Assembly: GCA_027050205.1 (NCBI GenBank)
Contig: JALUCS010000068.1
Location: 1-13,468, forward strand
Direction: 5' to 3'
Length of the DNA stretch: 13,468 nt
Source of the DNA: a candidate division WOR-3 bacterium
Lineage (GTDB): Bacteria > Hydrothermota > Hydrothermia > LBFQ01
Shown here piece after piece: positions 1,469 through 12,236 of this stretch. Made by a program: the position numbers and the translations under genes. Each line of letters begins with the position of its first letter. The stretch's first letter is position 1. The notes under the pieces are model-generated. The model was not told where the DNA came from. It did not search any database and saw only the letters and a program-made list of their open reading frames with translations.

Positions 1469-3010
1469 CTACGAGTTCCTGCCGCTCTGAAGCTCCCCGA
1501 TACTAACGTTGATATCAAACTCGTTCAGGTACCTGTTTATCGCGTAATCGTGCGTGGTCATTATCAGGATCTTCCCCTCCGTTTCCTTCAAAATTACACT
1601 TATCAGCTTATCCTTATCCTCAACATCAACGTTCTCCAGAGGCTCATCAAGGATGTAGCAGTCGGCGTCCCGTGATAGGGCGAGGGCAACGGCGAACTTC
1701 TTGAGCTGACCGGCGGACAGGTTGGAGGGGGTCTTGTCGGGCGGGAGGTTGAAGACCTTTAGAAGCTTCCTGAACTTACCCTCATCAACGGCAAACACCT
1801 TCGGATAGTCCATCAGGGGAATATCTACAAAGGTCTGGGGGGCCAACGACACCCTGCGGCAGGTTATTACGCGGCCGCTGTCCGGAGGAAGGAGGCCAGC
1901 GATGATGTTGAGGACGGTACTCTTCCCGCTCCCGTTCGGACCCGTTATAAGCACCCTTTCCCCCGGTGCTATCCTTAGCGTCAGGCCAGAGAGGACGGGG
2001 CGGTGGTCGTAAGAGAAGGATACGTCCTCAAGGATGACCCCTTCGCCCCTCTCAACCTCGCTTATCCTCTTCTCCTTCAGGAACCTCTCTATCCTGTCCA
2101 ACCTTGACCTTATGGAGACAATCTCCGGAATGGAGTTGAATATGGAGTTCAGCGAACCGTAAAAGGCGTAGAAAGCCGACATAAACCCCACGAAGTCCCC
2201 CACCGTAATCTTGTCCATAAACAGGAGGTATGCGTTTATCACCGTAAAGGATACCTGGGCCAGCATGCTGGCTATCTGAAGGGCGAATATGTAAATCTCC
2301 CGTTTTTTCGTTAAATTGTACGTAGTGTTAAGAAAATTATCCAAAAATTGCACAATAATATTCCATATCCTCTTTTGAGCGTTAAATATCCTGACGAGTG
2401 GGTACGAGCTAAGGGTGTTCGTCAGTCTGTCCTTCAAGAGGGCCTCGTGTTCCATCTGCTCCTTTGTAAGTTTGTCTATGTCCGCGTTGAACCTTGAGGT
2501 CAGGAAGATGGATATGACCGAAATGGGAAGTACGAATATCAGGGCTATGGGAGACAGGATAAACATCGCAATGGTCCTCCCTATGACGTCCATTATCCTG
2601 CTGAAGAGCATTACGAAGGTGTCCAGAGCGCCCGTCACCGTAGCCGTAGGCTCGTCGTAAATCCTGCTCAAATAGTATCCGACGTCGCGGGAAATTATCT
2701 CTTTGTAGGGGATGTAATAAAACCTATCAAGGTATTCCCTGAAAATCTCCTTCTGAATGTCGTTATCCAGCCTGACGTCAAAGAGGGTGTAGAGGTAGGA
2801 AATCACGTTGGACAGGGGGTATATTACCACCATTATTGCCAGAATGACGATCAGGGCGTGGAAATCTTTGGGGATTATGGCCTTATCAAACAAAAATTTC
2901 GTAATAAACGGCTCAATAACCCCTATAGCCGGAAATATAATAACCATAATGAGGGCCTTCAGCAGCACCCTCCCCCTGAACTTCCACAGCAGCCGCTTAA
3001 AAACTCCCAT
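1469..3010 (-). CDS. lanT: ABC exporter, fused TMD + NBD (LanT-type, no C39 peptidase domain)
   Basis: N-terminal multi-TM domain, Walker A GPNGSGKS, signature LSAGQ, Walker B YILDE and H-loop TTHD. It is divergent from the precursor and LanKC genes and shares their AT-richer composition. The role as lanthipeptide exporter is inferred from context. Confidence 0.8.
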   Translation of the reverse strand: MGVFKRLLWKFRGRVLLKALIMVIIFPAIGVIEPFITKFLFDKAIIPKDFHALIVILAIMVVIYPLSNVISYLYTLFDVRLDNDIQKEIFREYLDRFYYIPYKEIISRDVGYYLSRIYDEPTATVTGALDTFVMLFSRIMDVIGRTIAMFILSPIALIFVLPISVISIFLTSRFNADIDKLTKEQMEHEALLKDRLTNTLSSYPLVRIFNAQKRIWNIIVQFLDNFLNTTYNLTKKREIYIFALQIASMLAQVSFTVINAYLLFMDKITVGDFVGFMSAFYAFYGSLNSIFNSIPEIVSIRSRLDRIERFLKEKRISEVERGEGVILEDVSFSYDHRPVLSGLTLRIAPGERVLITGPNGSGKSTVLNIIAGLLPPDSGRVITCRRVSLAPQTFVDIPLMDYPKVFAVDEGKFRKLLKVFNLPPDKTPSNLSAGQLKKFAVALALSRDADCYILDEPLENVDVEDKDKLISVILKETEGKILIMTTHDYAINRYLNEFDINVSIGELQSGRNS

Positions 3011-3025
3011 AATTGTGCGGGGTGG

Positions 3026-3074
3026 ATTATATGGGGGATGGGGTACTTGACAAAATGAAAAAATCGGCCATTAT
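3026..3074. promoter_or_regulatory. Bidirectional sigma70-type promoter with overlapping -35 boxes
   Basis: Plus strand: TTGACA 3047-3052, 16 nt, CATTAT 3069-3074. Minus strand: TTGTCA 3053-3048, 16 nt, TATAAT 3031-3026. Confidence 0.7.
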
Positions 3075-3080
3075 TGTATG

Positions 3081-3192
3081 TCCCCAGGGTGGGGGTTGAG
3101 GGTGACGCCGACCCGGAACGGGCGATACCTCTCTGGGGCTTAACCCCTTCACCCGGAGAGGGTTGAGGCTGAAGGGGAAAAAGGAGGAGAGC
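3081..3192 (+). promoter_or_regulatory. Structured ~110-nt 5' UTR of the precursor gene, with SD AAGGAGG at 3181-3187
   Basis: Stem 3128-3137/3152-3161. Its loop segment 3144-3151 is complementary to 3170-3177. An alternative helix is 3092-3100/3139-3147. The TSS near 3081 is inferred from the promoter. Confidence 0.5.
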
Positions 3193-3315
3193 ATGAAGAA
3201 GGTTTTGAGGCTCCAGAGGGTTAAAGACTCAAGAACACCTAAAATAGTAGTCTGTCCACCTTGGAGACCTTCTAGTTTTCTGTTTAGTATAACCCACGTA
3301 GCCGACACTCCCTAA
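3193..3315 (+). CDS. lanA: Class III lanthipeptide precursor peptide, 40 aa: MKKVLRLQRVKDSRTPKIVVCPPWRPSSFLFSITHVADTP
   Basis: Not in the ORF track. SD AAGGAGG lies 5 nt before the ATG. The N-terminal VLRLQ matches the (I/L/V)LxLQ leader motif of class III precursors. The core is Ser/Thr-rich with one Cys. The gene ends 42 nt upstream of lanKC. Confidence 0.85.
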   Translation: MKKVLRLQRVKDSRTPKIVVCPPWRPSSFLFSITHVADTP

Positions 3316-3357
3316 CGTACAAAATCCCCACCCTGGGGAAAGATATAAGGAGGAATA

Positions 3358-6030
3358 ATGATTTATGGGTACTATTATAGGGAAAAATATAACATTAACA
3401 GAGTAGATGGGGATATATTATACAAAATACCTAAACTCGCAGAGTGTGAGCTTCTAAAGGAGATATCGCCTCCGGAGGACTGGCAAATTGACCGGGATCG
3501 TACGTGGTGCTATCTAAACGTTCCGGAGGATAACCTACCCATACAGGGGTGGAAGATCCACGTCTCTGCAACTCCAAAGAATTTCATAGACATCCTGAAA
3601 ATTGTATCGTCAATTCTGTTTAAAGAGGGAATATCGTTTAAGTTTTTAGCAAATAAAAGGATATTTTTCTCTATGATATCAAAGAACGCCTCCCGTGGTT
3701 CGTCAGGGAAGTTCATAACCGTTTACCCTCCAAACGATGAAGTTTTTAAGTATATCATAGAAAAACTGTACAGAGAATTAAAGGAATTTGAGGGACCGTA
3801 TATTCTTTCCGATAAAAGGTATAAAGATTGCAAAGTGCTGTACTACCGCTATGGCGGAATTCTGCCCAGGTATAAGATGGAACCCACCGGGGAAAGGACC
3901 TCGTTCCTCGTGGCTCCAGACGGTTCCCTCGTTCCCGATGAACGCACTCCCTACTTCAACCCTCCCGACTGGGTTGAGGATCCCTTTCCGGACGAGGAGG
4001 ACGAGGATGAGGAAGGGGATATAATACTGAAGGATAGATACAGGGTCCTTGAGGCGTTCAAGCACTCCAATATGGGAGGGTTGTACCTTGCGGAGGATCT
4101 CAAAACGGGTAGAACTGTCGTCCTGAAGGAGGCACGACCCTTTACGTTTTACGTGGACGATACCCATCACGCTTTCCACGTCCTTGAGAGGGAATACGAG
4201 ATCTTGAAGTTTCTCCGTGAGAACGGGGTAACGAACGGACCGGAAGTTTATGAGACCTTCAGAGAGTGGGAGCATAAGTTCATAGTGATGGAGCGCGTAG
4301 AGGGGGACTCTATGGACGACGTAGCCGGAAGGATGACGATAGGGTTAATCAAGAACGTAGGGAGTGTAAATATGAAAGAAATATATACATCCGCATTTTC
4401 GGAGATATTCAAAAAATTTGCGCTAACCTTGAAAGATATCCACAGATTAGGTATTGCTCACGGTGATATATCGGTCAATAACGTTTTCATAACTTTCAAC
4501 GATGAGAAACGCACGAATGCCGATAAGGTTAGACTAATTGATTTTGAGAGTGCTTCGGTCCTGAACGAAGAGCTGACCGAGAAGTTCAAGGAGAAGGACC
4601 TTCCGCTCCATATGGGTATGTTCACGCCCGGATTCGCGAGGAATGAGAACAGGTTGGAGAGGTATCCGGAGGACGACCTCTATTCCCTCGGCGCCCTTAT
4701 GTTGCACTTCGTAGGCGGGGCCTTCCTGACTATAAGGAACATAAATCCGGACTATTACAAGGTCATATACAAGATCGTCCAGAATTACGGATTACCCATA
4801 GAAATGGCGAAGCTGATTGACGATATACTCAACCTGCGGGTTTCCTACGATGAGATCGTAGAAAGGCTTGACGAAATCAGCGGTAAAAGCGTAGGGGACT
4901 TAAAGCTGCAGGACGTACTGCCCAGAGAGAGGGCTTCAGACCACATAAGGGAGTTCAAAAAGACTTTGGATAACCTTAAGTTCGTAATAGAAGAGGTTCC
5001 GTATCCCCTTTCGGCTTTCGCCTACAACACCAACACCTTGAGTTTGGGGTTCGGTATGTCGGGGATCCTGCGGGTGCTTCACCGCGTCTATGGAGAGATA
5101 GACGATGATGTGATGGAATGGTTTATCAACCGCCTCAAAGACGTAAATTCGGACAACTATCCACCGGGTTTGATGATCGGTATGGCCGGAATATCCTGGG
5201 CCTTGTGGGATCTCGGAATGCAGGAGGAGAGCATAAGACTCCTCAAGATGTCCAACGAGCATACGATACTGTTTGACAATCCGAGCCTCTTTTACGGGAG
5301 TTCGGGGGTGGGACTTGCCAACCTGAATATGTTCTTCAAGACCGGAGACAACTATTTCCTTGATCAGGCCGTAAGGATAGCCAATCACCTGTTGAACAGC
5401 CGGGAGGTGTCGGATAAGGGGACCTCCTGGACACCGGGCGTAGGGTACGGTAACGGACAGGCCGGCATAGGTCTCTACCTCCTGTACATGTACCTGCTTA
5501 CCGGAGATAGGAGGTATCTGGATGCGGGTACGGAGGGCCTGAAGTACGACCTGTCCTTTGAGTACGCCCCTCTGGGGTTCCCTCCCCGCGAAGATATTAA
5601 GATCTACACCACGTACTTTGAGTTCGGGGCAGCTGGAATAGGTAAGGTACTCCACCGCTACCTTCAGGCCCTCGGTGAAGAGTTTGAGTACTACTCCGAT
5701 TTTAAAGACAGGTTGAACAAGATACTTGAGTACATAAAGGTACCGTGGGTGACCTCTTACGTCCTCTTCTTCGGTGCCTCTGGCATCGCCGACTTCCTTA
5801 TGGACGTAGGGGACCCGTACGCCGGAGGTTTCCTGTCCATAATAGACGATATGGTCTTAGACACCAAGTACGGTAAGGTCGTACCGTCGGAGAGCCACAG
5901 CAGGATCATAACGAGCTTCGGAGACGGCCTGTCCGGGGTTATCGCCACCCTTCACCGTTATACGACGGGAAACGATTTGGGTATTGACATTTGGAAGGAT
6001 GTTCAAAGACTTGTCAAAAGTGGGCGGTGA
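3358..6030 (+). CDS. lanKC: Class III lanthipeptide synthetase (lyase-kinase-cyclase)
   Basis: Lyase motifs QGWKIHVSA, SGKFITVYP, GPYILSD and YYRYG. Kinase motifs HSNMGGLYLA, VVLKEARP, HGDISVNN, LIDFE, TPGF and DDLYSLG. The LanC-like GxxG repeats lack Zn ligands (GYGNGQAG, YFEFGAAG, LFFGASG), so this is class III and not class IV LanL. SD AAGGAGG is upstream. Confidence 0.93.
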   Translation: MIYGYYYREKYNINRVDGDILYKIPKLAECELLKEISPPEDWQIDRDRTWCYLNVPEDNLPIQGWKIHVSATPKNFIDILKIVSSILFKEGISFKFLANKRIFFSMISKNASRGSSGKFITVYPPNDEVFKYIIEKLYRELKEFEGPYILSDKRYKDCKVLYYRYGGILPRYKMEPTGERTSFLVAPDGSLVPDERTPYFNPPDWVEDPFPDEEDEDEEGDIILKDRYRVLEAFKHSNMGGLYLAEDLKTGRTVVLKEARPFTFYVDDTHHAFHVLEREYEILKFLRENGVTNGPEVYETFREWEHKFIVMERVEGDSMDDVAGRMTIGLIKNVGSVNMKEIYTSAFSEIFKKFALTLKDIHRLGIAHGDISVNNVFITFNDEKRTNADKVRLIDFESASVLNEELTEKFKEKDLPLHMGMFTPGFARNENRLERYPEDDLYSLGALMLHFVGGAFLTIRNINPDYYKVIYKIVQNYGLPIEMAKLIDDILNLRVSYDEIVERLDEISGKSVGDLKLQDVLPRERASDHIREFKKTLDNLKFVIEEVPYPLSAFAYNTNTLSLGFGMSGILRVLHRVYGEIDDDVMEWFINRLKDVNSDNYPPGLMIGMAGISWALWDLGMQEESIRLLKMSNEHTILFDNPSLFYGSSGVGLANLNMFFKTGDNYFLDQAVRIANHLLNSREVSDKGTSWTPGVGYGNGQAGIGLYLLYMYLLTGDRRYLDAGTEGLKYDLSFEYAPLGFPPREDIKIYTTYFEFGAAGIGKVLHRYLQALGEEFEYYSDFKDRLNKILEYIKVPWVTSYVLFFGASGIADFLMDVGDPYAGGFLSIIDDMVLDTKYGKVVPSESHSRIITSFGDGLSGVIATLHRYTTGNDLGIDIWKDVQRLVKSGR

Positions 6031-6711
6031 TCATACGGCCCTGTGGAGCCTCCCCTCCCTCAACTGGTATATCTCCACCCCCTCCCTCTCCTTTATGATG
6101 GAGGGGATGCGGTTGGACGTCCATAGGACGGCCGTCCCGGAGGAGTCGTTTATCTCCATAAACAGATGCTCAATCTCGTAGGAGGAGCGATCGTCCAGCC
6201 CCAAGGTGGGGTCGTCCGCGAGTAGGATCAGAGGCTCCTTCGCTATCGCCCTCGCTATCGCCAACTTCTGCCTCTGTCCGGCGGAAAGCTCCGGGGGGTA
6301 AGCGTCCTTTCTGTCGGCCAGGCCTACCCTCTCCAAGGCCCTAAGTGTGCGCTCCTTCGCCACGTTCCGGTTGTATCCGAGATGCTCCAGGACGTAGTAG
6401 ATGTTGTCGTAGCAGGTCATATCCTCAAGGTGGACGGGTACCTGCTTTATGACCCCTATCTTCCGTCTGACGTTCTGGAGGACGGCGGCGTTCCTCTTCG
6501 CCTCGCTGTGCCGTACCCCCAAAACCTCCACCTCCCCCTCGTCGGGGAACTCCTGAAAGTGGGCGAGGTTTATGAGGGTACTCTTCCCCACTCCAACCTC
6601 ACCGTAGATAATCGCAAATCCTCCCTTCTGAAGGGAGAGGTCCAGCGACCTTAAAACTTCCCTCTCCCGAAACCTCTTTACGACCCCCTTGAAACTAAGG
6701 ACACTCTCCAC
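6031..6711 (-). CDS. FtsE/LolD-like ABC ATP-binding protein with degenerate catalytic motifs
   Basis: Walker A GEVGVGKS, RRKIGVIKQ and LSAGQRQKLAIARAIAKEP. Walker B reads LLADDPT (usual E is D) and the H-loop reads WTSN. No permease gene is adjacent. Confidence 0.7.
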   Translation of the reverse strand: MESVLSFKGVVKRFREREVLRSLDLSLQKGGFAIIYGEVGVGKSTLINLAHFQEFPDEGEVEVLGVRHSEAKRNAAVLQNVRRKIGVIKQVPVHLEDMTCYDNIYYVLEHLGYNRNVAKERTLRALERVGLADRKDAYPPELSAGQRQKLAIARAIAKEPLILLADDPTLGLDDRSSYEIEHLFMEINDSSGTAVLWTSNRIPSIIKEREGVEIYQLREGRLHRAV

Positions 6712-6976: not shown

Positions 6977-9406
6977 CTATTTTAAGGGTGCGACCGCCCT
7001 CTTTACAACCCCTTTGCACACGATGAAGAAGACCCCCTTCCGGAGGTGGAGGGGATAGACGCCCTTCCCGTCCGTCCTGCCCTCGGCGAGGAGGCGGCCG
7101 TCGGCGGAATACACCTTTACGGGGGTACCCGGAGGGGCTTCCACCTTACCGTCCCCGATGGAGCAGTGGGCATCGGTACCGGCGCCCTCACCTACGGCCA
7201 TACCCGGCAGGATGGAGACGTCGTCTATGGATACGTCGGTGTCCCCGTAGTCGCTCCGGGCCACGAGCTTTAGGTAGAGGGTGTCGGCCGGTGGTAGGTT
7301 GAAGGAGTACTCCCGCCAGAGGGGGATGTCTCCGAATACGCCCCCTAAGAGGTACCATATCCCCTCGCCGGCCCTCTTGTAGTATATGTCAATGCGGTCG
7401 TAGTTCCCCCTGCCCGCCCACGTGGGGCCGTTCCAGACCTTCAGGGAGAGGTGGGCGGGGCCGGAGGACACTATCGGGGGTAGGTGAAGGGCGGAGGAGT
7501 CCCCGGAGGGGAGGACGAAAGATAGGAACTCGGCGAACCCGCTCCCGGAGGAGCCGAAGGTGGGGGAGACGCGGGCGTCCCCAAGGTAATGGCCCGGCAC
7601 CCACCCCCTGCCAGCGATTCCCCAGCCGATTGGGGGCCACCTCCCTTCAAAGTCCTGTACGTAGGGCGGTGAGACGGGCCTGCCAACCGGGACGTAGGAG
7701 AGGACGGAGTCGTTTCCAGAGGACATATCGGGGTTTATGTGCGCTAAGAGGGTGTAATGGCCGCTGTCGGGAGGGAGCCATCGGAAGTGGAGGGTGTCTG
7801 TAGAGCCGTAGGCTACGTTAAGGAGCCTCTCAAAGTGGGCGATGGGGGTACCGTCCCGGAGTATCTCAACCTTCAAGGTCTCCACTTTTATAACGAGGGA
7901 ACGGTTGTCGTATATGATGACGGAGGTCGTGCATACCCTCTCCGCCCAACACGGGCGGATCAGGGGTAGGATGCCGACGTCCCTCCACCCCTCCGGTCTC
8001 TGGAGGGTCAGGTGGGTGTTTGCCGGCCCGAAGGTGTCCGGGGAGAGGTCTGCCGTCTGGGGCCACCACGCCCAGAACTTCCCGCTCCTCCCCTCCCTGT
8101 AGGCCACGAATAGGGAGAAGTCTTCGCCAACCCTCCTGTCCAGCTTACCGGGGTCGGAGGAGGGGGAGATGGGTATTGAGACTTCAAAGGTGCCACCGAG
8201 GCGGGCGAAGTTGAGGGTGAGGTCCTTCCGTGGGAAGACGTACCCCTCGCTGCTGTCCCTGGTCGCCCACAGGGAGTAGGGCCTACCCCACAGGACGTTG
8301 AGGCCCTCCCCCTTTTCCCAACGGTTGTCTCCGTCGTCCTCTATAAACAGATATAGGACATCCGTACTGTCGTAGGTGGTGTCTCCCGTCTGGATTAGGA
8401 GGTTGAGGTGGGAACCGTCGTGTTGGAGCCGCACCATCACCACCCCCGTATCCGTAGGGGGGGAGGCCTTGCCAAAGTAGTTGGAGGCGTCTATCCTGTA
8501 GGAGGAGTCCCACTCCCCCGGTGAGGCCCGGCCGTCCAGATCCACCGATGGGGCGAAGGGGACCTCAAAGATGATGTCGGGGTAGGGCCACACCTTGAAG
8601 ACCTTGCGGGCGGTGTCGTTGCCGGCGTACTCGTCCCCCCCCGCCTCCACGATGGCCACCGCCTCGTACGTTCCGAGGCTCTCCGGTATAAACCACGGGA
8701 AGGCGATGTCGTAGTACGCCCCCGTATCGGCGGTGAGGTCGGCCGTCCCCCTATAGACCGTATCCCCTCGGTAGAGGACGTAGAAGTGGGCGTAGGTGTA
8801 GACGGCCGTCGTCCCCCTGTTGGTTATCCTGACCGTCGGTGAGATGTACTCCCCCCTGTAATGGAGGGCTTCGGGTACGAGTATGGCCGTAGCCTCAACG
8901 TCCGTACCCAAGAGCCTTCGCCCCTCTACGGAAACCTCGTCTATGGCAAACCAGTAGGCCCCCTCTTGGGAGTAGTACGCTAGGGCCACCTGAACGCTGT
9001 CGTACCCCGTAAGGAGGGGTAAGGTATCCCACCCTCTCCCGGTTGCCTCGTACCTCCTTAGGCTCACCCACGGCCCCCAGGTGGAACCGTCGTAGTACCT
9101 GACCATAACGACGGCGGAGTCGGAGGAGGTAGGCCCTTCTCGGTTGAAGGCGTAGGAGTAGGTTAGCCGTAGGCTATCGTACCCGGAGACGGAGACGGCC
9201 GGAGATAGGAGGGTGTCGGCGTAGAGTCCGGGGGTGCGGGCGTCGCATACGGCGTAGTGGGAACCTGCCCCTTCAGGCTCGTAGGGGAGGGTACCGTAGG
9301 CGTAGGTCTGCCAGGTAGGGGCGTCCCCGCCGTTCCCTACGGACCAGCCCGCCAGGCTCCCCTCAAACCCTCCGGACAGCAAATGTACCCACGTGAAGAG
9401 GGGCAT
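6977..9406 (-). CDS. Large extracellular multidomain adhesin-like protein with a T9SS-type C-terminal sorting-like domain
   Basis: Start revised to ATG 9406 (TAGAAT 8 nt upstream; this avoids overlap with dnaB). Two cleaved-adhesin/MAM-like jelly-roll modules (GFEG..GW...AIDEVSV; DFEG.WPP.GW...SIDDVSI), two CARDB/Ig-like modules ending in GND(T/S), a CBM9/DOMON-like module (LDG....GEW) and a C-terminal VKVYSADGRLL...LRKGVFFIV. Domain names come from pattern recognition only. Confidence 0.7.
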   Translation of the reverse strand: MPLFTWVHLLSGGFEGSLAGWSVGNGGDAPTWQTYAYGTLPYEPEGAGSHYAVCDARTPGLYADTLLSPAVSVSGYDSLRLTYSYAFNREGPTSSDSAVVMVRYYDGSTWGPWVSLRRYEATGRGWDTLPLLTGYDSVQVALAYYSQEGAYWFAIDEVSVEGRRLLGTDVEATAILVPEALHYRGEYISPTVRITNRGTTAVYTYAHFYVLYRGDTVYRGTADLTADTGAYYDIAFPWFIPESLGTYEAVAIVEAGGDEYAGNDTARKVFKVWPYPDIIFEVPFAPSVDLDGRASPGEWDSSYRIDASNYFGKASPPTDTGVVMVRLQHDGSHLNLLIQTGDTTYDSTDVLYLFIEDDGDNRWEKGEGLNVLWGRPYSLWATRDSSEGYVFPRKDLTLNFARLGGTFEVSIPISPSSDPGKLDRRVGEDFSLFVAYREGRSGKFWAWWPQTADLSPDTFGPANTHLTLQRPEGWRDVGILPLIRPCWAERVCTTSVIIYDNRSLVIKVETLKVEILRDGTPIAHFERLLNVAYGSTDTLHFRWLPPDSGHYTLLAHINPDMSSGNDSVLSYVPVGRPVSPPYVQDFEGRWPPIGWGIAGRGWVPGHYLGDARVSPTFGSSGSGFAEFLSFVLPSGDSSALHLPPIVSSGPAHLSLKVWNGPTWAGRGNYDRIDIYYKRAGEGIWYLLGGVFGDIPLWREYSFNLPPADTLYLKLVARSDYGDTDVSIDDVSILPGMAVGEGAGTDAHCSIGDGKVEAPPGTPVKVYSADGRLLAEGRTDGKGVYPLHLRKGVFFIVCKGVVKRAVAPLK

Positions 9407-9414
9407 GCTCCCAG

Positions 9415-9466
9415 ATTCTAAGGGCGTACCCTGCGAAGATGCTGTGGCCTTGGCCCACTTTAGAAT
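9415..9466. promoter_or_regulatory. Divergent -10 boxes for probable leaderless transcripts (surface protein and dnaB)
   Basis: Minus-strand TAGAAT 9420-9415 lies 8 nt before ATG 9406. Plus-strand TAGAAT 9461-9466 lies 7 nt before ATG 9474. Confidence 0.6.
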
Positions 9467-9473
9467 TGTGCCT

Positions 9474-10847
9474 ATGCAGGAGATAAAGGTACCCCACAAC
9501 ACCGACGCCGAGATGGCTATCCTATCCGCCTGCTTGTACAAGCCCGACCTCCTGGCCCGCGCTGTGGTGGAGCTTCACGAGGACGACTTCTACGATCCGA
9601 GGCACAGGACACTCTTCTCCGCCCTGAAGTCCCTCCACAGCGAGAAGCCCGCTGTAGACGGGGCTATACTCCTTGAGTACCTCAAGAGGCACAACCTGTT
9701 GGAGAAGGTGGGGGGTCTGAACTACCTCGCCGAGATATTTGACAGGATAAGGGGGTCGGTCTCCCTCTCCCTGTTTGACCAGTACCTCAAGATAGTCCGG
9801 GATAAGGCCATAAAGAGGGGCATAATAAACACCTTCTCCGAGACCATAAAGCTCGCCTACGAGGACGAGTTGGATGCCGAGACCATCCTTGATAAGGCGG
9901 AGAAGGAGATATTTGACATCAGGATGAGGACGATAAGGTCCGCCCAGTGGGTCCCCGTGGGGGAGGTGGCTATGAGGCTGCTGAACACCCTTGAGGAGAG
10001 GGTGAGCGGGAACCTGCCATCGGAGGCGGTGCTGACGGGCTTCAGTAAATTGGACGAGATAACGGGGGGATTCCGGCCGGGGGAGTGGGTGATAGTGGCC
10101 GCCCGTCCGTCCGTGGGTAAGACGGCCTTCGTCCTCAACATCCACCGTAATATGGCCCTGGACGGCATCCCCACGGCTATGTTCTCCCTTGAGATGACGG
10201 CGGAGGCCCTGGCCATGAGGCTCCTCGCCCTTGAGAGCGGCATCCCTATGTTCCTCCTGCGGGAGGGGAGGATAGAACCCAAGGACCTGTCCCGACTCGC
10301 CGACGCCGTTGAGCGTATGTTGGACATGCCCTTCTACATAGACGTCACCCACGGCATAGACATCTTTGAGATAAGGAGCAAAGCCCGTATGGTCGTCCAG
10401 GAGTACGGCGTTAGGATGATCTCCATAGACTACCTCCAGCTGATGGACCTCCGCGGTGGGAGGGGAAGGAACATGACGAGGGCGGAGGAGTTGGCCAAGA
10501 TCTCCCGGAGCCTTAAGATCCTCGCGGGGGAGTTGGGGGTCTCTATCGTAGGCATATCGCAGGTTAGCCGTGAGGTGGAGAAGAGGGCGGACAAGAAGCC
10601 CACGATGGCCGACCTAAGGGAGTCGGGGGCCCTGGAGCAGGATGCGGATATAATCCTTCTCCTCTACCGCCCCGGTCAGTACGACAAGGACGCCGACGAC
10701 ACCCTCGTGGAGGTGGAGGTGGCCAAGAACAGGCAGGGGAGCCAGGGGACGGTGAAACTCCACTTCTACCGTGAGTTTATGAGGTTCGCCGACTGGCACG
10801 AGGAGGACGGCAGCATAGAGGAGGTGGAGGAAGACGTCCCGTGGTGA
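9474..10847 (+). CDS. dnaB: Replicative DNA helicase
   Basis: PHNTDAE N-terminus, AARPSVGKT, FSLEM, IDYLQLM, DLRESGALEQDAD and KNRQG. No intein. Start revised from 9393 to ATG 9474. Confidence 0.97.
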   Translation: MQEIKVPHNTDAEMAILSACLYKPDLLARAVVELHEDDFYDPRHRTLFSALKSLHSEKPAVDGAILLEYLKRHNLLEKVGGLNYLAEIFDRIRGSVSLSLFDQYLKIVRDKAIKRGIINTFSETIKLAYEDELDAETILDKAEKEIFDIRMRTIRSAQWVPVGEVAMRLLNTLEERVSGNLPSEAVLTGFSKLDEITGGFRPGEWVIVAARPSVGKTAFVLNIHRNMALDGIPTAMFSLEMTAEALAMRLLALESGIPMFLLREGRIEPKDLSRLADAVERMLDMPFYIDVTHGIDIFEIRSKARMVVQEYGVRMISIDYLQLMDLRGGRGRNMTRAEELAKISRSLKILAGELGVSIVGISQVSREVEKRADKKPTMADLRESGALEQDADIILLLYRPGQYDKDADDTLVEVEVAKNRQGSQGTVKLHFYREFMRFADWHEEDGSIEEVEEDVPW

Positions 10848-10871: not shown

Positions 10872-12236
10872 ATGACCTGGAAGGAGCGCCTGAAGATGGC
10901 CCTCGGTGAGGAGGTGGTGAGGGACGACCCCCATCACCTTGAGGGGTACGCTCGCGACTCCTCCGACGCCCCGGCCGTCGTACCGGAGGCCGTCATACAC
11001 CCAAGGAACGCCGAAGAGGTCGTAAAGGCGGTTAATATCCTGCGGGAGTACCGGATACCCATAACGCCGAGGGGGTCGGGTACCTCCTTGAGCGGTGGGG
11101 CCGTCCCCCATCCGGGTGGGGTGGTCATAGCCTTTGACAGGATGGCGAGGATAAAGGAGATAAACGCCGATGACCTCTTAGCGGTGGTTGAGCCGGGGGT
11201 GATAACGGGGGACCTCCACAGGGCCGTGGAGGAGATGAACCTCTTCTATCCACCGGATCCGGCGAGCCTTGAGACCTGCACCGTAGGGGGGAACGTCGCC
11301 GAAAACGCCGGTGGGCCACGGGCCTTGAAGTACGGGACCACCAAACACTACGTCCTGGAGTTGGAGGTCGTAACGGCGACGGGTGAGAGGGTGAAGGTGG
11401 GTAAGAGGACGAAGAAGTGGGTGGTGGGGTACGACCTACCCTCCCTCTTCACAGGGAGCGAGGGGACCCTCGGCATAATAACCGAGGTAGCCTTGAGGCT
11501 CCTGCCCCGTCCCCCCAAGAGGTTCACCCTCCTCGCCGCCTTCCCAGACGAGGTATCGGCCGGACGCACCGTCTCGGAGATGGTCCGTAGGGGACTCTTG
11601 CCCGCCGCCCTTGAGTTCGTAGACCACAAGTGCATAGAGGCGGTCGGCGAAAAGATAGCCCCCTTCCTGCCGAAGGGAACGGGGAGCTTCCTCTTGGTGG
11701 AGTACGACGGCTTCGGCCCGGAGTTTGAGGCTCAGGTTGAAATAACCTACGAGATAGCCTCAAGGAACGGGAGCCTTGAGCTCCTGGCGGCGGAAGATGA
11801 AAGTACCCGGAGGAGGCTGTGGGAGGCCCGTCGGGGGGTACTACCGGCGTTGGAGGGGTTGGGGTACGCCATAAGGCACGAGGACGTCGTGGTTCCGAGG
11901 AGCAGGATACCCGACCTCATAGCCCACACAGAGGAGGTAGAGAGGAAGGTCGGGGTAAAGTTGGCCAGCTTCGGACACGCAGGGGACGGCAACATCCACG
12001 TCAACGTCCTCTACGAGCCGGGGCAGGAGGAGAAGATGGAGCGGGCGGTGAATATGGTAGTGGAGAAGGTCTGGGAGTTGGGGGGGACGAGCGCCGGGGA
12101 GCATGGGATAGGCACCCTCAAGAGGGAGCTGATGAGGAGGGAACTGCCCCCGTTCGTCTATACCCTCCTGAAGGACGTAAAGGCCCTCTTTGACCCGGAC
12201 GGCATCCTAAATCCGCACGTTATGTTCCTGCCGTAG
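10872..12236 (+). CDS. FAD-linked oxidase, GlcD / D-lactate dehydrogenase family
   Basis: PRGSGTSLSGG, YPPDPAS, GGNVAENAGG, KYG, GSEGTLGIITE, GHAGDGNIH, GEHGIG and FDPDGILNP. CAGAAT lies 6 nt before the ATG. Confidence 0.9.
   Translation: MTWKERLKMALGEEVVRDDPHHLEGYARDSSDAPAVVPEAVIHPRNAEEVVKAVNILREYRIPITPRGSGTSLSGGAVPHPGGVVIAFDRMARIKEINADDLLAVVEPGVITGDLHRAVEEMNLFYPPDPASLETCTVGGNVAENAGGPRALKYGTTKHYVLELEVVTATGERVKVGKRTKKWVVGYDLPSLFTGSEGTLGIITEVALRLLPRPPKRFTLLAAFPDEVSAGRTVSEMVRRGLLPAALEFVDHKCIEAVGEKIAPFLPKGTGSFLLVEYDGFGPEFEAQVEITYEIASRNGSLELLAAEDESTRRRLWEARRGVLPALEGLGYAIRHEDVVVPRSRIPDLIAHTEEVERKVGVKLASFGHAGDGNIHVNVLYEPGQEEKMERAVNMVVEKVWELGGTSAGEHGIGTLKRELMRRELPPFVYTLLKDVKALFDPDGILNPHVMFLP

Follow-up and report, generated by a model that had tools for sequence, protein, structure and literature searches.

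The stretch of DNA analysed here (the window) is contig JALUCS010000068.1 of the candidate division WOR-3 assembly GCA_027050205.1 at its full length of 13,468 nucleotides, and it makes up the entire contig C68 of a 2.05-Mb genome that is 93.5% complete. It carries lanA, which encodes a 40-residue precursor peptide, directly followed by lanKC, which encodes a lyase-kinase-cyclase of 890 residues, and a divergent ATP-binding cassette (ABC) exporter. A first-pass annotation of the same DNA had described lanA as a small open reading frame (ORF) with a strong Shine-Dalgarno sequence and a VLRLQ leader motif, placed upstream of a LanKC devoid of zinc ligands, and all of these features were found as it gave them. 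After Cys21 the peptide continues with PPWRP, S27, S28, S32, T34, H35 and T39, while S13 and T15 precede it. The annotation was also right that the canonical class III core is missing, in that no [ST]-x2-[ST]-x2-5-C motif lies beyond residue 12. The core carries S28-x3-S32-x2-H35, and we propose below that in this unit, and in the precursor family to which the peptide belongs, His probably takes the place of Cys as the residue that closes the ring.

Seven further precursors carry the window-type leader, and all family counts refer to these eight (P0130, a variant of P0129, was left out). The leader begins with M1-K-K-V-L-x-L-Q8, unchanged across 9/9 aligned family sequences, and includes the LxLQ motif described for class III leaders (PMC7268733). 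The nearest relative is found in G071, a genome of the same genus with a LanKC 88% identical to that of the window. It has three tandem precursor cassettes with the leader as in the window, and every core ends in S-x3-[ST]-x2-C, preceded in a common register by one or two S-x3-S-x2-H modules. Four more precursors were recovered from databases: P0129 and P0131 have two His modules each and no Cys, P0132 has one His module and one Cys module, and P0135 has three His modules and a final S-x4-S-x2-C unit. The core unit of the family is thus eight residues long, S-x3-S/T-x2-X, where X is His in 13 and Cys in four exact modules, and the Cys module, where present, is always terminal. Position 1 is Ser in 17/17 modules and position 3 is hydrophobic in 13/13 His modules. 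The central position 5 is Ser in 13/13 His modules and Thr in three of the four exact Cys modules. The eight peptides hold 18 His residues, 13 closing a module and five inside one. Because terminal modules have Cys and upstream modules have His at an identical position, the sequences are most simply read as one ring program with two nucleophiles. In the Cys-free P0129 and P0131 a thioether is impossible, yet two modules are retained in each.

The His motif had been written down before P0129, P0131, P0132 and P0135 were found. A search with a four-sequence alignment returned a single candidate (1/1), which was P0129, and a profile run against 1.84 billion representatives had eight matches, four of them precursors; P0133, P0134, P0136 and P0137 were dropped from these matches as long repetitive proteins. 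Precursor profile matches occurred in 2/272 genomes of the phylum. When the protein search was repeated with nine sequences, it yielded 21 candidates, and the family members among them came only from four known clusters.

On its own, the S-x3-S-x2-H of the 14-residue window core is weakly above chance (shuffling P=0.038), and the weight of this module comes from the relatives and not from the statistics of the window peptide. Across five family cores, seven His modules have the spacing (3,2), the other 35 of 36 spacings occurring at most once each, and 0/5000 shuffles reached seven at any spacing. Among 200,000 shuffles, the counts were 37 for P0129, 45 for P0131, 6719 for P0132 and 19 for P0135. 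For the background, we used 92 loci of more distant LanKCs, of which 69 gave candidates with the leader pattern; removal of one non-precursor and of four rows from three duplicate loci left 86 unique peptides from 66 loci. The motif [ST]-x2-[ST]-x2-5-C was present in 85/86 of these peptides and none (0/86) was Cys-free. S-x3-[ST]-x2-H occurred in 1/86 (three if Thr is permitted first) and S-x3-[ST]-x2-C in 20/86, among Ser-rich cores. Conversely, the loose [ST] form of S-x2-S-x2-5-C was seen in one of five tested family cores. The annotation had allowed that homologous clusters might have canonical cores, leaving lanA as a degenerate copy; this describes the distant clusters well and fails for the nearest relatives. 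Its proposed consensus, C-x5-SS-x3-S-x2-H, survived alignment of the relatives in the S-x3-S-x2-H part and not in the remainder. The sole background peptide without the canonical motif, L086 (Actinospica, about 5523), has a single Cys upstream of every core Ser and three Trp, and its LanKC branch is the longest in both trees.

By its sequence, the window enzyme is a class III LanKC: it scored 583.9 bits with the NCBIfam class III model NF038151 (cut-off 575), versus 426 with the class IV model (cut-off 650). Its only Cys residues are at 30, 51 and 158, the cyclase domain being Cys-free, and E755, F804 and F805 align with S726, F770 and D771 of ThurKC, which are the NisC zinc-ligand sites. The enzyme therefore has none of the Cys-Cys-His zinc ligands whose lack marks a class III cyclase. 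In the same comparison, R610, D667 and D771 of the ThurKC cyclase align with Y646, N699 and F805. Residues with catalytic roles as given in PMC8341899 and PMC13504147 were all present in the lyase (H68, K95, K118 and R164) and kinase (K257, D370, N375 and DFE) domains; active-site positions were placed by sequence alignment. The LanKC belongs to a clade of four (window, P0001, P0122 and P0123), which was compared with 118 relatives. The clade has lost conserved columns mostly in the cyclase (44/124), with 19/69 lost in the kinase and 8/78 in the lyase. At 95% conservation it lacks 15-17 of 56 cyclase columns, while any other sequence lacks at most nine, and the lost residues include D853, K796 and G844, invariant in 118/118 relatives. 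Inside the clade, cyclase identity is 90-96%, and the ratio of nonsynonymous to synonymous substitution rates (dN/dS) was 0.13 for the one pair compared, window and G071; judged from these sequences, the cyclase is under purifying selection. In L002, the kinase segment corresponding to window residues 311-405 has a dS of 2.1, compared with 0.2-0.5 for the remaining domain segments, a difference suggestive of recombination of this patch in one lineage.

We favour, with moderate confidence, a reading in which His replaces Cys as the ring-closing nucleophile in this LanKC precursor family. The annotation had listed His35 as one of several candidate nucleophiles, and it is this option that the 13 recurrences of S-x3-S-x2-H in eight precursors, and the four sister modules with Cys at the same place, strongly favour. 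In the proposed route, following established LanKC chemistry, LanKC would bind the leader through LxLQ, and S28 and S32, perhaps together with S27, T34 and T39, would be phosphorylated and eliminated to dehydro residues. As the sequences suggest, an imidazole nitrogen of H35 would then add to dehydroalanine 32 (Dha32). The enolate could then be protonated, giving a histidinoalanine ring, or it could attack Dha28, giving a labionin-like triamino acid in which C-N replaces C-S; PMC8341899 describes labionin formation as addition of Cys to the central Dha, followed by attack of the enolate on the first Dha. The sulfur-free His-labionin is the single most likely structure, tentative as it is, and a plain single His-Dha ring, to either Ser, is about as possible. 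Similarly tentative is the extension to the whole clade, which might make sulfur-free labionins with up to three tandem modules per peptide and hence cysteine-free polycyclic peptides. The invariant central Ser of the His modules would fit a weak nucleophile that requires the more reactive Dha. The leader would probably be cut near P26 by an unclustered peptidase, and the product would be exported by the divergent ABC transporter. Since histidinoalanine forms under heat in food proteins, thermophily of the host may ease ring closure or even make the cyclase dispensable for it. That the product binds metal, by analogy with noursin, is a guess. The family itself appears real, conserved and unexplained by known families, while the crosslink is a prediction.

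The closest described precedent is noursin, made by NorKC (LanKC-Hbt; ANZ21440.1) of Streptomyces noursei. As reported in PMC10206099, it has a labionin between Ser3 and Ser7, closed with Cys15, while His11 adds to dehydrobutyrine 8. Noursin is thus an example of a LanKC working with His, of a labionin bridging S-x3-S and of a dehydrated residue attacked by a His at +3, which gives a precedent for both spacings of the window module. The two systems have in common a class III enzyme, two Ser spaced by x3 and a His at +3 from a dehydrated residue, as far as the account in PMC10206099 goes; this likeness is drawn from the described layout and chemistry of noursin, the nearest cyclase in our tree being that of L035. 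In noursin, however, separate residues serve the labionin (Ser3/Ser7/Cys15) and the His crosslink (Thr8/His11). In the present family the His comes after the central Ser itself, Ser takes the place of Thr as acceptor, up to three modules occur per peptide and some members are Cys-free. The noursin layout of Thr-x2-His inside a Cys-closed ring is accordingly absent: the acceptor is Ser in 13/13 and there is no Cys downstream of the window module.

Several observations weigh against His as the ring closer. Metal ligands, too, typically interchange Cys and His, and the shuffling values overstate independence because all eight precursors are kin and share one leader. The database precursors were retrieved with profiles that contain the motif, so that motif-less relatives could escape detection, and among the four a link to a LanKC is indicated for P0131 alone (P0131 and the LanKC P0122 are both on 60,556-base contigs). 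According to PMC10206099, the Cys15-to-His variant of NorA gave a dehydrated, ring-free peptide, and the His crosslink of noursin arises only after the labionin; noursin thus needs an earlier Cys ring, and the Cys-free precursors have none. Finally, the altered cyclase is not peculiar to the His family. In a FastTree analysis of 81 LanKCs (full-length only, fragmentary and duplicate loci excluded, midpoint root), the LanKC of L035, from a metagenome-assembled genome named as Deltaproteobacteria, is sister to the clade, with a support of 0.999 for the cyclase and 0.55 for the lyase. It shares 20/29 of the clade losses (90% threshold), and its precursor has a canonical S-x2-S-x2-C end and no His. 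Since these losses are common to an enzyme with a canonical precursor, the cyclase remodelling would predate the His modules. The idea that the cyclase was remodelled for His is weakened, and the L035 pattern speaks against an enzyme signature of His use; it also makes a dead cyclase less likely. The clade alone carries nine changes, including H847, I851 and T752 close to the final active-site loops, for which a role is speculation; D856 is shared with L035.

The same observations feed the best-surviving alternative, that the His modules are dehydrated and left uncrosslinked, giving a linear dehydropeptide whose His stays free, for instance to bind metal, in which only the terminal Cys modules of the relatives cyclise. 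The failure of NorKC to use His instead of Cys for a labionin, the loss of the otherwise invariant D853, K796 and G844, and the frequency of Cys/His exchange in metal sites all agree with it. It leaves unexplained, however, why the two Ser of 13/13 His modules are spaced exactly as in the Cys modules when the x positions are variable. The conserved cyclase, with its low dN/dS, is likewise unaccounted for, and retention of a canonical Cys precursor beside the same altered motifs in L035 suggests that such a cyclase still works. We regard the linear product as unlikely, though deserving of serious consideration.

Appreciably less probable is that the family is real and the window precursor is a decayed, unprocessed copy that has lost its terminal Cys module. 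No member diverges more than the window peptide, which has a single module and an altered leader in its second half, and in three other vent runs loose ends continue into G071-type cassettes. The NCBIfam precursor model NF038154 (lanthi_III_a) matched 7/9 aligned members weakly (best E 0.0011, member 1 below cut-off) and, unlike these, the window leader had no match, a point that counts as well against its having a cyclised product. Against decay, nothing is damaged in the Shine-Dalgarno sequence, the leader motif, the reading frame or any of the three module positions, and the third module residue is hydrophobic as in the other members. The peptide is moreover the sole precursor of the family found in a nearly complete genome that retains an intact LanKC and exporter, and Cys-free members are known elsewhere (P0129 and P0131). 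A frameshift, which the annotation had considered, or an assembly error as the origin of the odd core is not indicated: a contig of run X1 covers 2800-3447 at a depth of 218 with no differences, although, because X1 may be the source sample of the window itself, this agreement shows internal consistency and not independent confirmation. Runs X2, X5 and X6 had zero coverage across 3244-3391, which shows nothing by itself.

A main ring from Cys21, whether a reverse one to a Dha further downstream (S27/S28) or one to S13/T15 on the upstream side, both raised in the annotation, is very improbable, even though C21 is the only Cys in the peptide and in the background peptide L086, too, a lone Cys precedes the core serines: 0/7 relatives have a Cys in this region, two of them are Cys-free, C21 aligns with the leader end and is likely outside the mature core, and S13-x-T15-x5-C21 is unlike S-x2-S and not conserved.

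The reading that His closes the ring places the family at the edge of class III. The enzyme is a single lyase-kinase-cyclase and the adjacent precursor has an LxLQ-type leader (VLRLQ), while the core departs from S-x2-S-x2-5-C. Since a thioether is impossible in P0129 and P0131, the product should not, on these sequences, be classed as a strict lanthipeptide, although the enzyme is a LanKC. The accounts of labyrinthopeptin, stackepeptin, ThurKC and TherKC in PMC8341899, PMC10604976 and PMC13504147 describe the same zinc-free tri-domain LanKC and LxLQ leader, and stackepeptin as described there also has repeated Ser-Ser-nucleophile modules (motif multiplication). The labionin and lanthionine systems, as far as these sources cover them, likewise pair an ABC exporter with no clustered protease; their motif is S-x2-S-x2-5-C, in contrast to S-x3-S-x2-H/C here. 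Among the systems compared, LanKC clusters of the same phylum have the nearest enzymes (32-41% identity), with similar LxLQ leaders and the lanA-lanKC-ABC layout, and L035 shares the altered cyclase motifs; both differ from the window family in that their precursors are canonical, Cys-terminated and free of His modules. The L035 precursor (2600-2887) has a long helical-looking N-terminal extension, with 95 residues from the first ATG; it adjoins a tRNA-like sequence, and a Memo-like gene lies 3' of lanKC. As for the bond itself, histidinoalanine has the same His-to-Dha linkage, described in PMC8997915 as arising by Michael addition under heat or alkali, and theonellamides contain it in a non-ribosomal peptide; in the histidinoalanine sources consulted, it does not figure as a crosslink that an enzyme installs in a programmed way in a ribosomal peptide. 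A search of the literature on His, labionin, histidinoalanine and WOR-3 lanthipeptides, in which subscription papers were thinly covered, turned up neither this family nor a labionin initiated by His.

What defines lanthipeptide cyclases is ring closure initiated by Cys, and noursin, which needs a Cys ring first, is the sole His exception found. Alternation of His and Cys at one position of a fixed module offers a natural experiment on how zinc-free cyclases, the mechanism of which is described as still open in PMC8341899, choose their nucleophile. The predicted crosslink is testable with two genes and has built-in controls in G071 (both module types) and in P0129 and P0131 (His only). A large RODEO survey, as described in PMC7268733, discarded all ORFs without Cys. 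Genome mining that requires Cys thus has a blind spot, since Cys-free members are discarded by design. If the prediction is true, an enzyme forming C-N macrocycles from a host that bears reverse gyrase could serve as a heat-tolerant tool.

Table 1. Features of the window and related copies elsewhere in the genome
Feature	Position	Strand	Basis or remark
lanA precursor, 40 aa	3193..3315	+	ORF; sole precursor of the family found in the genome
Shine-Dalgarno AGGAGG of lanA	3182..3187	+	5 nt 5' of ATG
Leader motif VLRLQ (residues 4-8), LxLQ type	3202..3216	+	translation and alignment
Cys21, sole Cys	3253..3255	+	aligns with Pro-rich leader end
Core module S28-x3-S32-x2-H35 (SFLFSITH)	3274..3297	+	predicted ring-forming unit
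lanKC, 890 aa, lyase-kinase-cyclase, intact frame	3358..6030	+	RamC_N, Pkinase, LANC_like (Pfam)
ABC exporter	1469..3010	-	membrane and ATPase domains; divergent from lanA; arrangement also in G071
Element of ~70 nt 5' of lanA start codon	3122..3191	+	repeat comparison
Own-genome copies of upstream element	C117 about 15644-15710; C95 about 24622-24674	-	sequence match
17-nt inverted repeat enclosing lanA and its 5' untranslated region	arms 3081-3097, 3323-3339		fold z = -3.1
Overlapping divergent sigma-70-like promoter matches	3047-3074; 3053-3026	+; -	consensus matches only
Flanking genes, housekeeping-like	524-1447; 6031-6711; 9393-10847; 10872-12236	-; -; +; +	domain/family matches

The cassette stands apart from its surroundings (Table 1). 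Windowed GC content is 41-53% across 2001-6000 and 54-64% elsewhere in the window, and among six other genomes of the genus a LanKC match was found in G071 alone. Alignment between G071 and the window is confined to lanKC, the exporter and the upstream element, while neighbouring genes differ. From the drop in GC and the position of the G071 island between different neighbours, we infer that lanA, lanKC and the exporter form a mobile three-gene island. The flanking genes encode a radical SAM protein, which we take to be PflX-like, an FtsE-like ATPase, a DnaB helicase and an FAD-linked oxidase, and none of the four adjoins the island in G071. No peptidase domain was found in the exporter by domain scan, and scanning of 10 window proteins revealed no protease gene; elsewhere in the genome there are three S9 and two M1 peptidase matches. 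Reverse gyrase is present in the genome and the best-matching sources of the window DNA are hydrothermal vent metagenomes, from which the host appears to be a thermophile. Relatives place the lineage in WOR-3: the start of P0073, a sequence labelled WOR-3, resembles that of the LanKC of G050, a genome of the same class, and L020, a record named Ca. Hydrothermia, shares its precursors with G057 of the same order.

The upstream element (55-70 nt) has a hairpin running into the Shine-Dalgarno sequence, and copies precede each of the G071 precursors as well as two unrelated genes in the window's own genome. Rfam gave no credible match to it, only a single chance-level one (E 0.13), and a scan of metagenome contigs with a 32-nt upstream pattern gave none. 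Its sequence and placement are possibly those of an undescribed cis-regulatory RNA or operator. The 3' arm of the inverted repeat could form a hairpin of its own just 5' of the lanKC Shine-Dalgarno sequence and has a minus-strand terminator score; similar repeat arms flank the first two G071 precursors.

Wider searches with the enzyme returned no further relatives among 598 stretches of genome contigs (single-LanKC scan) or in metagenome contigs (scan with the four-member clade alignment, 0/599), and the ESM Atlas gave only generic LanC clusters (0.90) and weak RamS matches (at most 0.78). In two genomes, G003 and G114, LanKC is split into two ORFs (L013/L017 and L014/L016) beside precursors that look intact, and the LanKC match of G059 (L009) has one TAA inside.

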